This document shows positions 1,022 to 22,778 of a stretch of 64,000 nt of DNA, piece after piece. Every line of letters starts with the position of its first letter. Positions within the stretch are counted from its first letter, which is position 1. Location: positions 63,988 through 127,987 of IMG/VR virus record IMGVR_UViG_3300028832_000004. One strand, 5' to 3'. This stretch comes from a virus (lineage: Duplodnaviria; Caudoviricetes). The notes under the pieces were generated by a model that saw only the letters and a list, made by a program, of their open reading frames with translations, searched no databases and had not been told where the DNA came from. The position numbers and the translations under genes were made by a program.

Positions 1022-1786
1022 TTAGAAGGTATCCCAAATGAGCTGGTTGAGCTTGGCGACCGCACAACTAATCATATGCCCGCGGTTGTATCCATAAGCA
1101 CGGATGAACTCCGGAACGGATGTAACCGGCTTGATGTAAGTGAAGGAGTCCACCGAATCAAAGTCAATGTAGCGGGCAAGCTTGGAAGTGATCCCGAGGC
1201 CGTGAATATGCACATCGCGGGCGCGGGCGTACCAAACGAGCTCGCGCATCAGGCGGGCAACATCATGGCAGTTCGTCAAGCCCGATCCGGCAACGCCACC
1301 GATGGCGAAGAAGCCGCCGGGGCCGACCTGCTGGCAATAATCCGCGAACTTTTGAATCGGGTCAAAGATATGCCAAACGAGGGTAGGTTCCTCTCCGACA
1401 AGCTGGATGAGCTTGTCGCGGAGACGCGCATATTCCTTTTCGCCAACCACGGACTGAATATCCAATTCGAAGAAGTGGGTGAAATACTTGCGATACTTCT
1501 TGATGAAAGCCGCGTAGTCTTCCACATACTTGTCAAGGCTGAATTCGCCCTTGAGCTTCCCCTTCTTGGCTGCCATCATCATAGAGAAGGCGCCGGAGTC
1601 AAGCAAGATTTCTTGTCCCGGTTCGGGACCTGAGTAAAGCTCCAGCGCCTCCTCGACGCGTTCGGGAGATGCCTTGGACAAGTAATAGAACGACACAAGG
1701 CAATATTTAAATTTGTATTTACGGAATGCTTCTTTCGATACGGACGCATGAAGCTTTCCGATGTCAAGACCGGCGTAATACTTCAA
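1022..1786 (-). CDS. TGT-fold (queuine tRNA-ribosyltransferase/DpdA-like) base-exchange protein
   Basis: Motifs LLDSGAFS, FELD, AIGG, HIHGLG, FDSVDS typical of TGT-like barrels; adjacent to ParB-like gene. Confidence 0.7.
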   Translation of the reverse strand: MKYYAGLDIGKLHASVSKEAFRKYKFKYCLVSFYYLSKASPERVEEALELYSGPEPGQEILLDSGAFSMMMAAKKGKLKGEFSLDKYVEDYAAFIKKYRKYFTHFFELDIQSVVGEKEYARLRDKLIQLVGEEPTLVWHIFDPIQKFADYCQQVGPGGFFAIGGVAGSGLTNCHDVARLMRELVWYARARDVHIHGLGITSKLARYIDFDSVDSFTYIKPVTSVPEFIRAYGYNRGHMISCAVAKLNQLIWDTF

Positions 1787-1797
1787 AGCGGACCTCC

Positions 1798-2388
1798 TTA
1801 CACCTTGTCCCAGCCGATAATATCAAAGTTTCCTTCGTCTTCGGAATTATCGTTAACCGGACCTTCGGATCCATCAACATCCACCGGACATTCCGGTTCG
1901 GCGACTGCATTGGATTCGCCAACGATTTCGGAAGCGATACCTGCTTCTTGCGGGAGCATGTTACGCTTCTTGAGAATCTTAGGATCGAGCGGGCGGATGT
2001 TCTTGATGTCCGTAATGATGTTCTTCATTTCGGTGAGATACTTGGAGTGAACGCGGCCGCCCATAATTTCCTTCGCAACGGAAGCAAAGTCCAGCTTGCC
2101 GAGGGACTGCGTCACGTTGTCGATGATGCGGAGTTCGTCTTCAGCCTCCTTGTCAAGGTCGGAAATGATGCACGGAATTTCGGACAAGCCTAGTTTCTGT
2201 GCAGCCATGAGGCGGCCGTGACCGGTAATGACAACATGTTCGGCGTTCACCACAATCGGAATTTGGAAGCCGAAGCATTCAATGGAGTTCGCGATGGAAT
2301 CCACGTTATCGGCGTGGGTCTTGTTGTTGTTCTTGTAGGGGTAAATGCACTTTACCGGGAGGTATACGATTTCGAGTTTGTGTTCCAT
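1798..2388 (-). CDS. ParB/Srx-like N-terminal domain protein
   Basis: PYKNNNKTH..IANSIECFGFQIPIVV..ITGHGRLMAAQKLG..RIIDN; ATG 2388 after AAAGGA. Confidence 0.85.
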   Translation of the reverse strand: MEHKLEIVYLPVKCIYPYKNNNKTHADNVDSIANSIECFGFQIPIVVNAEHVVITGHGRLMAAQKLGLSEIPCIISDLDKEAEDELRIIDNVTQSLGKLDFASVAKEIMGGRVHSKYLTEMKNIITDIKNIRPLDPKILKKRNMLPQEAGIASEIVGESNAVAEPECPVDVDGSEGPVNDNSEDEGNFDIIGWDKV

Positions 2389-2423
2389 TGTATTCCTTTT
2401 GAAAAGATACATAAATATACGAA

Positions 2424-2452
2424 AGGAGGCGCCTAGATTTTAGGCGCCTCCT
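2424..2452 (-). terminator. intrinsic terminator closing the minus-strand ncRNA island
   Basis: 12-bp inverted repeat AGGAGGCGCCTA/TAGGCGCCTCCT followed by TTT on the minus strand. Confidence 0.6.
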
Positions 2453-2671
2453 ACACCAGGAAAGAAAATTAGTCCGGATACGACGCGCTGAATTTCACAG
2501 ACTCAAAGGCTATACAAGACCATATCCGGTCCGCGCAGAATAATTGTGCCCCCTACTAATGACTTGTTTCCAGCCCTCGCGGCCACCGGAGTTCGGATTT
2601 CCACCGTATTGAACAGGGCTATCTCCAGTCAGGTGGCGGCTGCCCTCATGAGGTATGACTAAATATACGAT

Positions 2672-2784
2672 GCCAGTGACTCGGGGAAGGATCGAACTTC
2701 CGAGGATTGCGGCCCATCACAGTCGCGGCGCCTCTGCTTCCGCGACTCACGGCTTGCCAACCACCGCTCACGCAAACCACTGAC
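2672..2784 (-). ncRNA. tRNA-like RNA with non-canonical anticodon arm
   Basis: 12-bp terminal stem, D-like arm GCGG-TGGTTGGCAAG-CCGT, 8-bp stem with 11-nt loop in the anticodon position, perfect T arm GGAAG-TTCGATC-CTTCC. Confidence 0.55.
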
Positions 2785-2785
2785 A

Positions 2786-3118
2786 TCAAAAAGCGTGTTC
2801 GCCCCAATCGGCATGCGGATGCTTATGCCTGAATGCTTTGTGCCACGCCTTTCCAAACTTTGATACGTGGAACATTACATTGGTGCCGGGACCCGGCGCT
2901 TCCCTGCTTGTCATAAGCCCTTTTGCGACCAATGATTCACAAGCGAGAAAGTTATTGTCTTTGATATTGCGGTTGCATCCAAAGAAGTTTCTATAGCCAC
3001 CGGATCCCCAGCCATTATAGATCGGGTAGGAGTCGAAACCCAGGGAGTGTGTCATTACCTTAACTTCTTCGACAGAGCAGGTCACTCCATAAAAACCAAG
3101 TCGCAATCCTTTTGACAT
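2786..3118 (-). CDS. hypothetical protein
   Basis: 110-aa ORF with GAGGG RBS. Confidence 0.65.
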   Translation of the reverse strand: MSKGLRLGFYGVTCSVEEVKVMTHSLGFDSYPIYNGWGSGGYRNFFGCNRNIKDNNFLACESLVAKGLMTSREAPGPGTNVMFHVSKFGKAWHKAFRHKHPHADWGEHAF

Positions 3119-3134
3119 TTTGAACCCTCTTAAA

Positions 3135-3215
3135 TGGTATGCGGCAGTTCCGCTCTTACCTGCCCGGTTTCCGCTTTGGGGCGGGCGCCGTTAAGCCTCG
3201 GAGTAGAACTGCCGC
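3135..3215 (-). ncRNA. putative structured small RNA
   Basis: 10-bp closing stem GCGGCAGTTC/GAACTGCCGC with nested helices, ending ATACCA on the minus strand. Confidence 0.35.
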
Positions 3216-3566
3216 TAGGCATTGGCCACTGCTGTTAGCCACCAACTATTATGCGGTAGTTAAGTCCCGTCAGGTGTATCGGACCCTGCGTCGCCCCCAT
3301 TGCCAAGCGGGGAATCTTTCTCGGCCTGTTCATCGCCATGCTTTACTGAACAGGCAACTTCTTGTAGCGACCGGTTGTATGTCTCTTTGCAAGGAGTGAA
3401 GGAAACCGGAAAACAAAGCTCTCCTCTTTCAAAATGAAAGGTGCTGACAAGGGATTCTAGCTTTATGCCACGCGCGGCTCTTCACCGTCTCAGGGGATTG
3501 CTCCCGCACCTCTTTCAAAAGCGTCGCCTCGAAGATGCATTCCCCGAGACTTCTGCCGTATCCCTA

Positions 3567-3640
3567 AACGCGTTACCGGACTCGAACCAGTGGCTTACCG
3601 GGTGTATCCGCCCGAGCTCTACCAACTGAGCTAAACGTGT
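3567..3640 (-). tRNA. atypical tRNA-like gene, 8-nt anticodon loop CGGATACA (Ile-GAT-like)
   Basis: ACACGTT/AACGCGT acceptor (1 mismatch), D arm GCTC-AGTTGGTA-GAGC, TCGGG/CCCGG stem, T arm ACTGG-TTCGAGT-CCGGT; no U33. Confidence 0.7.
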
Positions 3641-3755
3641 AGGGGTTTCGACAGCATTTCAAACTTGCGGTGCGCTCTAGCCCGGTGGAGCGATGCGTTC
3701 CTCGTAAGGACTGAGCATCCGGGCGTCACCAAACATAATATACGCCGCAATAAAC

Positions 3756-3980
3756 CTAATGATTCGGATCTACAAGGCGGACAAGATCGCCCACGGTCTT
3801 TATACGATCCAGTTCTGAATCGGAAATGTTGGCGCCGAACTCATCTTCCAAATCTAGTGAAATCATAAGACGCTCATAGTCATCCTCCGAAAAGACAGTT
3901 TCAAGATTGGTATCCTCGGTGATGTCCGAAATGGCGAGGCGGTCTTCGAGAATGGTCTTAACACGATCAAATGCGGTCAT
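3756..3980 (-). CDS. acyl carrier protein-like protein lacking the phosphopantetheinylated Ser
   Basis: FDRVKTIL..DITEDTNL..LEDEFGANISDSELDRIKTVGDLV aligns with AcpP; DSL motif reads DDY. Confidence 0.8.
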   Translation of the reverse strand: MTAFDRVKTILEDRLAISDITEDTNLETVFSEDDYERLMISLDLEDEFGANISDSELDRIKTVGDLVRLVDPNH

Positions 3981-4056
3981 ATACTATTCCTTAAAATAAA
4001 TCGTTTGCGCGTGATGCCCAAGCCTAAGATGAGGCATCACGCCTTCTTTTATGTAG

Positions 4057-4129
4057 GGGCAGGAGCCGGACTCGGACCGGCAACCTAGGAATTAGTATAT
4101 TCCCTGCTCTACCATTGAGCTATCCCGCC
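4057..4129 (-). tRNA. atypical tRNA-like gene, 8-nt anticodon loop TATACTAA
   Basis: GGCGGGA/TCCTGCC acceptor, D arm GCTC-AATGGTA-GAGC, GGGAA/TTCCT stem, T loop TCCGAGT. Confidence 0.75.
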
Positions 4130-4149
4130 ATAGTCCTTGTGGTTGATAG

Positions 4150-4430
4150 TCACTTTTCGTTCGGGAGTAGCCGAACGAGCCCTGAAGGATGCCGGGCGCT
4201 CCGTCTTCCCACCCTATTGACGGAACAGAGGGAAACTACTCCACACGGGTAATCAGCCCGTACTACGTAGCCGGTCCTGATGCAGTTTGGCCCTCCACCG
4301 AGCACTGCTTAGTCGGTAGCCGTAGCATCCGACCTACATCAGTCAGTTTTCCGATTTCCTTCAGCCTAATGCGGTCTCCAGCGCTTTGCCTCGGTCCGCT
4401 TCGCTTATCACGGTCACCTTGGCAAAACCT
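4150..4430 (-). ncRNA. large multi-helix structured RNA, unclassified
   Basis: At least six hairpins, long-range CTGAAGGA/TCCTTCAG helix and a GAGTAG/CTACTC loop pairing; no convincing ORF. Confidence 0.45.
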
Positions 4431-4435
4431 CATCG

Positions 4436-4551
4436 GGAGGTGATTAAATATACATACCAAATGCTCTACACGTTGGCAGGTGCTTCGCCCCGTCTGTGAC
4501 CTCGGCGTGCAACTTGCGTATCGGTATCCCTGTCGAAACCAAGGCACCCCC
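4436..4551 (-). ncRNA. miniature tmRNA-like RNA (no mRNA-like domain, no T arm)
   Basis: GGGGGTG-CCTTGGTTTCGACAGGG start, GCACGCCGAGG and AACGTGTAG helix-2 hallmarks, 3' CACCTCC giving G3.U70. Confidence 0.65.
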
Positions 4552-4557
4552 GATAGT

Positions 4558-4746
4558 TTAAACCTGAACCGGAGCCTGAGCTTCAGCCTTCGGAGCCTTG
4601 GCGGCCTTTTCAGCGGCCCGTTCAGCCTTGCGCTGCTCACGGAGCGGGGTCAATTCGGCGAGAACCTGCGATGTATCTTTTCCACCCTTCTTAAGGGTCG
4701 ACAGCTTATGTGTGAGCTTGCGAATCTTCAACTGCAATTCGGTCAT
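4558..4746 (-). CDS. small basic Lys/Ala-rich protein
   Basis: ATG 4746 after AAGGAG; CGTATATT -10 at about 4788-4795. Confidence 0.65.
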   Translation of the reverse strand: MTELQLKIRKLTHKLSTLKKGGKDTSQVLAELTPLREQRKAERAAEKAAKAPKAEAQAPVQV

Positions 4747-4901
4747 TTGAAACTCCTTGGTTGATATGCCAATTAAATGTCTTCTGTAATATACGGACAG
4801 CTGGACCATTTCGTCCAGCCGTGAGGTATAAGAAAATTTAAGGACTATACGGTTTCCGCTGCCCTAAATGAAATCCGCCCTCTTTTTTTCGATAAAACGG
4901 G

Positions 4902-4930
4902 GTGTCTTTTTCAAATAATGGAGCTATATT
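4902..4930 (+). promoter_or_regulatory. phage early promoter, copy 1
   Basis: GTGTCTTTTTCA-N11-TATATT; 7 copies in the window with identical spacing. Confidence 0.85.
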
Positions 4931-4973
4931 ATATTCATAGCCTGCAGGTAGCGGGCGAAATAAGGAAAGAAAT

Positions 4974-5258
4974 ATGATCAAGAATTTCAAAAAAGAATTG
5001 TACGGCTGGTGCGCAACCTACGTTGCCACAGTAAAACGCCACTTCGTCTATAGGCTCAAGCATACAGAGGCAAAAGCCTTCAAGGTATTTGTCGAATATA
5101 AAGGGCAGACGTTTGCCAAAACATTCAAGAAAAATGCCATCTGTTGCGTCAAAGGGCATTACCATGTGAACGGCATTATCCTTTGGGCAAAAACCATTAT
5201 GCCGCGTAATCCGGGCGATGTTTGGGTGTTCGTCTCGAAAATTCAGGTCAAGTACTAA
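4974..5258 (+). CDS. hypothetical early protein
   Basis: First ORF after the promoter; AAGGAAAGA RBS. Confidence 0.7.
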   Translation: MIKNFKKELYGWCATYVATVKRHFVYRLKHTEAKAFKVFVEYKGQTFAKTFKKNAICCVKGHYHVNGIILWAKTIMPRNPGDVWVFVSKIQVKY

Positions 5259-22318: not shown

Positions 22319-22678
22319 TGGGCGCCGAAGGATTCGAACCTTCACAGTCTTACGACATGCAGGGAATCCATGGGAGCTTATCCCCATTTTATCCACTGCA
22401 TCGCCTCGCCAGCTCCATCGTTCCAATACCGCACATTTACTTCAGCAACGATATTAGCTACATATCGTTAACCTTTCTGTTATTGGCATCTTCAGTCGTT
22501 TCAGCGATTCCCGATCCGATCTACTCCAGCTTAGAGCGATTCCTTCACGGATCTACCTACTCCTTTATATGGCACTTTCATTAGGAATGACCAAGATCGC
22601 AGCTACAAAGAGCAACCAATGTAACCCACTTTCGGAGTCGTCAATCTTTCTCTTACTAGTGAATGGCGGAGAACGCCC
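22319..22678 (-). ncRNA. 360-nt tRNA-scaffolded RNA with large insertions in D and anticodon arms
   Basis: GGGCGTT/GGCGCCC-A acceptor, CGCCA/TGGCG stem closing 252 nt, ATGCAG/CTGCAT stem closing 33 nt, GTC-GTAA-GAC variable arm, GAAGG-TTCGAAT-CCTTC T arm. Confidence 0.65.
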
Positions 22679-22701
22679 GTATTTAATGCACAAGTGCATA
22701 G

Positions 22702-22778
22702 TGGCAGTTTTGGGAATCGAACCCATCATCGTACTAGCTTTCGAAAGCTAGGTGCTCTCCCGACTGAGCTATACTGCC
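22702..22778 (-). tRNA. atypical tRNA-like gene, 8-nt loop TTTCGAAA (Arg-TCG-like)
   Basis: GGCAGT/ACTGCC acceptor, GCTC-AGTCGGGA-GAGC, palindromic anticodon arm CTAGCTTTCGAAAGCTAG, TGGG-TTCGATT-CCCA. Confidence 0.75.

Follow-up and report, generated by a model that had tools for sequence, protein, structure and literature searches.

The window analysed here is a 64,000-nucleotide (nt) stretch of the virus record IMGVR_UViG_3300028832_000004 (Duplodnaviria; Caudoviricetes). It covers bases 63,988-127,987 of the complete 127,987-bp record, which carries direct terminal repeats, and forms its second half. The source DNA comes from bovine-gut metagenome runs, and no RNA run is among those listed for this stretch. 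The subject of this analysis is an RNA-gene island of about 2.4 kb (window positions 2414-4795), which is mostly non-coding and lies on the minus strand, as do all of the genes in the finding. From head to end, the island contains a small open reading frame (ORF), the stump of a transfer-messenger RNA (tmRNA), a large structured RNA named SR1, the tRNA-like gene A, a conserved hairpin, an acyl carrier protein (ACP)-like gene, the tRNA-like gene B, a 110-aa ORF, a tRNA-scaffold-like RNA (X3), and several non-coding modules (X0, X1, X2, and X4-E5). A ParB-like gene follows. An earlier sequence-only reading had described the segment 2420-4560 as about 2.1 kb of mostly non-coding DNA, and had taken its RNAs and a serine-less ACP for selected mimics of the translation machinery rather than decaying genes. 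About 74% of this segment is indeed non-coding, and only two credible ORFs (3980-3756 and 3118-2786) lie within it. The whole genome contains five normal tRNAs (at 11.4 kb), three odd tRNAs, and no intact tmRNA.

About 25 related contigs (designated by L numbers) were gathered for comparison by four routes. The ParB protein identified two IMG/VR relatives, L003 (95% identity) and L004 (81%); the conserved core motif of SR1 identified 17 metagenome loci; ParB homologues in a protein collection gave further contigs; and homologues of the 110-aa protein gave more. No close genome was matched in the annotated phage collection, the IMG/VR relatives were limited to these two, and a search of IMG/VR with the 110-aa protein returned no locus.

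Four copies of a promoter-like box, CGTATATT, were found along the island. P1 (4788-4795) lies at its head and is kept 5' of the small ORF in L003 and L004; P2 (3737-3744) and P3 (2662-2669) are internal; P4 (2414-2421) precedes the ParB-like gene (2412-1798). The first three correspond to the minus-strand -10 elements noticed earlier at about 4788, 3737, and 2662. The box is enriched, with 11 copies in the window against 2.7 expected, and none of 100 shuffles reached at least 11. Copies outside the island include ones ahead of the normal tRNA cluster and of a second RNA island. Many copies lie immediately 3' of a terminator hairpin, or ahead of genes or RNA clusters; no -35 box was found at them. 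The CGTATATT box looks like a phage promoter element. Another internal box, GTATATT (4447-4453), lies 6-7 nt before the 5' end of SR1, and also precedes SR1 in L004, L010, L012, L016, L022, and L023.

SR1 and the tRNA-shaped genes

SR1 (4135-4443) is about 300 nt long, and consists of a 5' hairpin, a variable domain, a three-way junction, a conserved core, and four hairpins. There is one copy in this genome. No Rfam match was obtained for SR1 at E<=10 in a search over 2200-5000, and the core motif was absent from 185,579 species genomes; the exact motif was found at the 17 metagenome loci. In alignments of 14-17 distinct SR1 sequences, the core motifs are invariant, and both strands of the helices beside them vary. 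A covariance model built for the 135-nt 3' domain scored 80-134 bits at every locus. In the model alignment, which is fitted to the model and thus somewhat favours structure, 92% of the paired cells form pairs, compared with 26-40% for slid partners; 22 of the 31 pairs have changed on both sides, and none of 500 shuffles reached any observed measure. Compensatory changes were also present in 19 of 37 pairs when the alignment was made with MAFFT only, and the helix of the three-way junction covaries. The large structured RNA of the sequence-only reading is thus confirmed at 4443-4135, and, as judged by its strong covariation, SR1 is a new structured RNA family. Pairing between the loop of its first hairpin H1 (CCGAU) and a conserved AUCGG is plausible; both sides are invariant. 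SR1 in the window is itself a mosaic, with a 5' domain of the L004/L010 type and a core of the L003 type. RNase P RNA, 6S RNA, a group I intron, a T-box, and a permuted tmRNA were considered for SR1 and dropped, as no Rfam match was obtained and the signature motifs were not seen.

SR1 has a close genomic partner. In 16 of the 17 loci that have the end of the SR1 model on the contig, a tRNA-shaped gene starts 5-15 nt past it: tRNA-Met(CAU) in 11, tRNA-Pro in one, and a tRNA-like gene of type A in four. The tRNA-Met(CAU) after SR1 in L004 (6968-7041) and the tRNA-Met of L003 (5261-5334, about 1 kb 5' of the SR1 there) carry a U1-U72 mismatch atop the acceptor stem, which is reminiscent of initiator tRNA. 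GOLLD and ROOL are likewise structured non-coding RNAs that often occur in phages or prophages and beside tRNA genes, and SR1 shares this context. The function of GOLLD and ROOL is unknown; ROOL was first found in cow rumen data (PMC5737381), a habitat that SR1 shares. However, SR1 is much shorter (about 270-320 nt versus about 580-800 nt) and was not matched by their covariance models (E<=10, 2200-5000). Its coupling to the tRNA is also much tighter (5-15 nt, usually tRNA-Met), and it was found in this phage group only, not in the 185,579 species genomes.

Three tRNA-like genes were identified in the window. tRNA-like A (4056-4129) keeps its acceptor, D, and T arms intact, and its anticodon position is occupied by a 5-bp stem, unique to it, with an 8-nt (or 6-nt) loop; tRNA-like B (3567-3640) lacks U33 in its 8-nt loop, and its acceptor stem is weak; tRNA-like C (22701-22778), in the second island, has a palindromic hairpin as its anticodon arm, read as an 8-nt loop. 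All three exceed the 29-bit cut-off of the tRNA model (RF00005), with 53.9, 37.4, and 36.7 bits, respectively. None of them has a 7-nt anticodon loop with U33 and a readable triplet; ARAGORN assigns 2-base or 4-base anticodons to them and likewise to their relatives. Of the three types, only C has U33. Two tRNA-likes with 8-nt loops had been claimed in the first island. Abnormal loops are present in A, B, and C, and 8 nt is correct for B and C, but ARAGORN reads the loop of A as 6 nt; it becomes 8 nt only if the closing U-A pair is left open.

The type A genes have nearly identical acceptor, D, and T arms in the window, L003, L031, L032, L012, L022, and L034, and differ in the anticodon arm. 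The window arm is only 32% identical to that of L003 over 19 nt; it was found nowhere else in the loci or in IMG/VR, and no donor was identified. The loop UGUUUCGG is common to the type A genes of L003, L031, L032, L012, and L022, whose stems show a compensatory change from A-U to C-G. In L034 (1199-1318), a 6-bp stem encloses a branched insert of about 50 nt, and the minimum free energy fold is still a cloverleaf (z -2.2). This insert holds T-arm-like and D-arm-like hairpins, like a tRNA within a tRNA. The anticodon-arm position of one frame is therefore occupied by three unrelated inserts.

In type B, the 8-nt loop without U33 is kept in four sequence variants with unchanged stems; the loop differs at four of its eight positions between close relatives. 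The acceptor stem contains a mismatch and wobble pairs. A type B relative (31 bits) lies inside the full tRNA array of L017. Comparison of type C in the window and in L034 showed compensatory changes in the anticodon stem and the T stem around the same palindromic loop. The type C loop UUUCGAAA is conserved, contains U33 and a purine at 37, and can close to a 7-bp stem with a tetraloop. X3 (2669-2787) corresponds to the tRNA-like RNA without an anticodon loop proposed earlier; its branched centre is closed by a 15-bp stem, and it includes a canonical T arm (2701-2685) but no anticodon arm. In L034, the sequence of this closing stem is wholly different, yet perfectly complementary. A strict T-arm scan of the window found seven motifs: four in real tRNAs, and one each in B, X3, and an RNA of about 360 nt in the second island.

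The covariation comparison across related phages that the sequence-only reading had proposed thus gave covarying helices in SR1 and compensatory stem changes in all three tRNA-like families, and stems are kept while the decoding parts are altered, as had been noticed. For the tRNA-likes and the large RNA, selection for RNA shape rather than random decay is supported by these comparisons. The tRNA-like genes look like natural tRNA scaffolds with interchangeable non-decoding inserts. An acceptor-stem and T-arm frame for RNase P/Z processing and stability is also found in MALAT1-mascRNA, a eukaryotic case. The engineered tRNA scaffold (PMC3753655) uses such a frame with the cargo at the anticodon arm, and type A has exactly this layout, with three cargos. 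These two precedents differ in being a eukaryotic RNA and a laboratory design, respectively; for the phage RNAs, such processing is proposed from sequence.

The tmRNA scar and the cassette site

The mini-tmRNA of the sequence-only reading (4551-4435) did not hold up as one unit or as a selected mimic. This span scored 30.8 bits with the Rfam tmRNA model (RF00023), under its 47-bit cut-off. The stump (4488-4551) comprises the initial ~62 nt of a tmRNA gene. L003, L033, and L034 have this gene in full (354 nt), directly after the small ORF; the L003 tmRNA scores 156 bits and has a tag peptide. Three-way alignment and BLAST maps showed that the homology between the window and the tmRNA is nearly identical and ends at about nt 62. 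The next ~30 nt (4456-4487) are a non-coding relic whose match in L004, L010, and L023 is the 3' coding end of the small ORF. They are followed by the GTATATT box, and then by the supposed 3' acceptor strand. This strand, CACCUCC, is the 5' strand of SR1 hairpin H1. It lies downstream of the promoter box, is present in relatives without the tmRNA piece, and covaries with its own downstream partner.

The window piece also differs from tmRNA, phage copies included, in its architecture. The model alignment contains no T arm and no genuine paired acceptor stem, and neither a tag reading frame nor pseudoknots were found in the window, where ARAGORN reported no tmRNA. ARAGORN did find tmRNA tags in L003, L033, L034, L017, L018, and L020. 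Contigs assembled separately from another run span the junction of the stump, which is therefore not an assembly artefact. A low-depth contig in the same sample (window 4490-4582) has 29 other bases in place of the stump; strains with and without it co-occur. As judged by these alignments, the mini-tmRNA is a deletion or recombination scar, a dead remnant composed of the tmRNA 5' stump, the ORF-end relic, a promoter box, and the first hairpin of SR1. About 290 nt of tmRNA and about 1.6 kb of RNA genes seen in L003 have thus been lost by recombination.

The relatives differ greatly in the RNA genes that they carry around SR1. The distant relatives L017, L020, and L011 contain arrays of up to 34 tRNAs and a full tmRNA (35 tRNA/tmRNA genes in L017, 24 in L020), and closer relatives contain shorter and differing selections. 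The interval from the small ORF to ParB is therefore a hypervariable cassette site for RNA genes. An IS605 OrfB/TnpB-like gene (L029:1-264) was observed a few kb from the cassette region. An RNA of about 140 nt, absent from the window, is common to L004 (7220-7360) and L003 (5545-5695); its ends pair as in tmRNA, and it includes a T arm (Rfam tmRNA 17.6 bits, E 0.0025). Several more units ending in a T arm and an A-rich trailer were seen in L003, and none in the window. The tRNA and tRNA-like genes of this phage group do not encode CCA; the discriminator base is followed by a shared C-U-A and an A-rich trailer (L003:5333-5345; L004:7040-7050; window 22320-22330), which may be a 3'-processing signal.

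Other modules, small genes, and neighbouring features

The non-coding modules of the island are conserved hairpin 4005-4050 (after tRNA-like A), the leader module X0 (3641-3735), X1 (3376-3566), X2 (3119-3313), and X4-E5 (2424-2660), a unit of about 235 nt that begins at box P3 and closes with a strong terminator hairpin (2452-2424). The identity to L003 is 93% for the hairpin, 94.7% for X1, 95.9% for X2, 94.8% for X3, 94.3% for X4, and 93.3% for SR1, versus 80.2% for the 110-aa ORF (2786-3118; phrog_13561), 85% for tRNA-like B, and 73% for tRNA-like A. The ORF thus diverges faster (80%) than its flanking non-coding DNA (about 95%), with changes at all codon positions; the divergence at third codon positions is 26%. 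By this comparison, constraint is stronger on the non-coding modules than on the protein gene, and change clusters in the anticodon arms. The type B loop changes (four of eight) are indistinguishable from neutral drift at so few sites. E5, an element of about 110 nt (window 2440-2591) with an internal inverted repeat, lies just 5' of the ParB-like gene in nearly all relatives, and is tandemly doubled in L004 (7755-7969), L010, L012, L014, and L022. E5 could be a small RNA (sRNA) or a protein-binding site.

The small ORF (4558-4746), which opens the RNA region in nearly all relatives, encodes a 62-aa Lys/Ala-rich protein without a Pfam, PHROG, or Atlas match, and neither it nor the 110-aa protein has a named relative in the Atlas. 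Its Ala/Pro-rich tail resembles the tag peptide of the relatives' tmRNA. The 62-aa protein may be an RNA-binding protein.

The ACP-like gene (3756-3980) encodes a 74-aa protein. It matches PF00550 (E 5.7e-5; 23.7 bits versus a 20.8-bit cut-off) and phrog_5934, and its full length can be aligned to solved ACPs (best E 7.6e-10). The cofactor serine of the Asp-Ser-Leu motif is missing, and an Asp aligns with the serine of 4dxe, 6lvt, and 1x3o. The serine-less ACP noticed earlier is therefore correct as a sequence; with Asp at the phosphopantetheine site, the protein would not have the usual carrier role. Only one homologue, P0030 (84% identical), was found among 5.8 billion proteins, and the gene is absent from the closest relative L003. 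The serine loss is recent, because this homologue keeps the serine, and the gene is accessory; it is weak evidence for a designed mimic.

The second RNA island had been placed at 22.0-22.8 kb, and was found on the minus strand at about 22.84-22.16 kb, behind its own CGTATATT box. Besides tRNA-like C, it contains the RNA of about 360 nt (22327-22686), which has an acceptor-like stem and a canonical T arm (22343-22327), and whose ends were read from sequence. Neither the L003 nor the L004 genome has a counterpart of the second island; a relative, in L034, was found for tRNA-like C alone.

Downstream of the first island, the ParB-like gene is followed by a TGT/DpdA-like gene (phrog_887; 1786-1022). 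The order ParB-like, TGT/DpdA-like, QueC, and phosphoribosyltransferase-like is conserved (window 1022-2412; L025, L027, L029, and L031-L033), and suggests 7-deazaguanine modification of the phage DNA. A link between the loops starting with UG and the TGT/DpdA-like gene was considered and dropped, as this gene belongs to the QueC/DpdA DNA-modification cluster, and UGU is not at loop positions 33-35.

Proposed processing and alternative explanations

Comparative and structural analyses suggest, with moderate confidence, that the island is a mosaic, recombination-prone region of RNA-gene cassettes, the remainder of the large tRNA/tmRNA array of its relatives, and that it drives transcripts of mostly structured RNA that are processed via their tRNA frames. 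The four CGTATATT boxes and the internal GTATATT box appear to drive these transcripts. The tRNA frames would recruit the host tRNA-maturation enzymes, with RNase P at the 5' side, and 3' trimming and CCA addition at the 3' side. This would be the simplest role for a tRNA shape that is selected without decoding, and it parallels the working of the laboratory tRNA scaffold (PMC3753655). The enzymes would release discrete units from the multi-RNA transcripts and make them stable in the way of tRNAs. Where a tRNA or tRNA-like gene follows SR1, its cleavage by RNase P would also set the 3' end of SR1, and the tight spacing between SR1 and the tRNA fits this proposal. Phage tRNA clusters are matured by host tRNA-maturation enzymes. 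The tRNA gene cluster of phage T4 also yields the stable RNAs species 1 and 2, and these are comparable as small, stable, non-tRNA RNAs that are co-transcribed with phage tRNAs and released by host enzymes, although they are not known to be related in sequence to the RNAs of the island.

Several points weigh against this reading. In L008, SR1 is followed by a terminator and no tRNA, and the tRNA partner is therefore not obligatory; SR1 is absent from the relatives L029 and L030, and the RNAs are hence accessory. The fold energies of X1, X2, and X3 (z -0.04 to -0.30) are no better than those of shuffled sequences, and X0, X1, X2, and X4 could be DNA elements or leaders. A pure processing handle needs the acceptor stem and T arm alone; the retained D arms and anticodon stems therefore hint at a function of the full L-shape, as do the type A loop UGUUUCGG at five loci and the type C loop UUUCGAAA. 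Furthermore, we infer the promoters, transcription, processing, the discrete RNAs, and any roles after their release from the sequence.

The proposal of the sequence-only reading was a decoy arsenal against anticodon nucleases, tRNA-modifying toxins, or stringent-response sensors. On this view, the tRNA-shaped RNAs would titrate host factors that inspect tRNAs, uncharged-tRNA sensors included, which would spare the real tRNAs or blunt abortive infection. The known anticodon nucleases (PrrC, colicins, and VapC) cut 7-nt loops, and the 6- or 8-nt loops here, without U33 in A and B, would be poor copies of their natural targets. The full L-shape is kept by compensatory changes while the loops differ, which speaks for the idea. 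The type B loop, with half of its positions changed on identical stems, fits diversifying selection as well as drift; with the third-codon divergence as the neutral rate, these changes are within drift. Phage tRNAs do counter tRNA-targeting defences (PMC10264068; PMC11555353), such as a T5 tRNA that acts against PARIS (PMC11464382), and the setting is similar: tRNA-shaped phage RNAs with altered anticodon loops in an arms race. However, the published cases are working tRNAs with 7-nt loops that decode and that replace or resist cleavage, not non-decoding decoys with 6-nt loops, 8-nt loops, or inserts. Published work gives the setting for a decoy function, but no precedent, and the function remains conjectural. 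No defence or anti-defence gene was identified adjacent to the island, and the tmRNA 'mimic' is a scar. The decoy explanation is therefore considered unlikely.

A broader version is slightly less probable still and is put forward as speculation. SR1 and the tRNA-framed RNAs might form an RNA toolkit acting on host tRNA or translation surveillance, with the tRNA bodies as bait and SR1 acting on a CAU-anticodon tRNA, which would be an undescribed, RNA-only form of counter-defence. The retained D arms and anticodon stems, the conserved A and C loops, and the preference of SR1 for a CAU-anticodon tRNA leave room for more specific roles, the decoy idea among them.

Alternatively, the odd tRNA genes might be relics, decaying pseudogenes left after the array shrank, with conservation due to recent common ancestry. 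The tmRNA piece is truly a dead remnant, the ACP-like serine was lost recently, A and B are the least conserved RNAs of the island, and the B acceptor stem is imperfect. These observations are outweighed for the tRNA-likes by the compensatory changes that A and C show in their anticodon and T stems, by a loop length other than 7 nt that persists across at least four B variants, and by the arms outside the anticodon arm, which diverge far less than neutral sites. A B homologue also coexists with the full tRNA set of L017, and the L034 insert keeps a perfect cloverleaf frame. Decay of the tRNA-likes is therefore improbable. The earlier claim that the RNAs are selected rather than decaying stands for the tRNA-likes and SR1, given the compensatory changes, the exchanged X3 stem, and the constraint; it does not hold for the tmRNA piece, and the case for the ACP is weak.

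It is equally improbable that the conserved modules are chiefly regulatory DNA or leaders. X0, X1, X2, and X4-E5 would then be cis-acting leaders, riboswitch-like elements, or DNA bound by a protein (for example, the ParB-like protein), rather than free RNAs. A long hairpin at the end of X2 directly adjoins the ribosome-binding site of the 110-aa ORF, and X2 may be a leader or riboswitch; the position and doubling of E5 and the unremarkable fold energies point in the same direction. The homologues of X0, X1, X2, and X4-E5 are 87-98% identical, partial modules, with too few substitutions for covariation. However, X4-E5 resembles an sRNA gene in having a promoter box on one side and a strong terminator on the other, and in L033 and L034 an extra 129-aa gene separates the X2 homologue from the homologue of the 110-aa ORF. 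This explanation is also silent on SR1 and the tRNA frames, which are clearly RNA.

Least probable is that the 8-nt-loop tRNAs are charged and decode four-base codons (+1 frameshift) or triplets. An 8-nt loop alone does not exclude decoding, since a yeast mitochondrial tRNA-Thr with such a loop reads triplets (PMC3113583), and engineered quadruplet decoders function in E. coli (PMC9094753). Type C combines U33 with a palindromic anticodon of four bases, and its base 37 is a purine. In A and B, however, U33 and a purine at 37 are missing whichever register is used, and the type C loop is able to close to a stem with a tetraloop. The type A frame carries a 50-nt insert in L034, the B acceptor stem is weak, and no gene needing a frameshift is tied to the tRNA-likes, although no search was made for one.

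In summary, the analysis provides a caution that a neat-looking mini-tmRNA can be a recombination scar. It also provides natural RNAs whose construction matches that of the laboratory tRNA scaffold; sister phages place different cargos on a single frame. SR1, whose strict genomic partner is a tRNA a few bases 3' of it, offers a concrete target for the study of structure and function beside GOLLD and ROOL. If the RNAs are baits for tRNA-cleaving defences, they would represent a new counter-defence principle. If the transcripts are processed as proposed, they would illustrate a general route by which phages could obtain stable small RNAs via the tRNA enzymes of the host.

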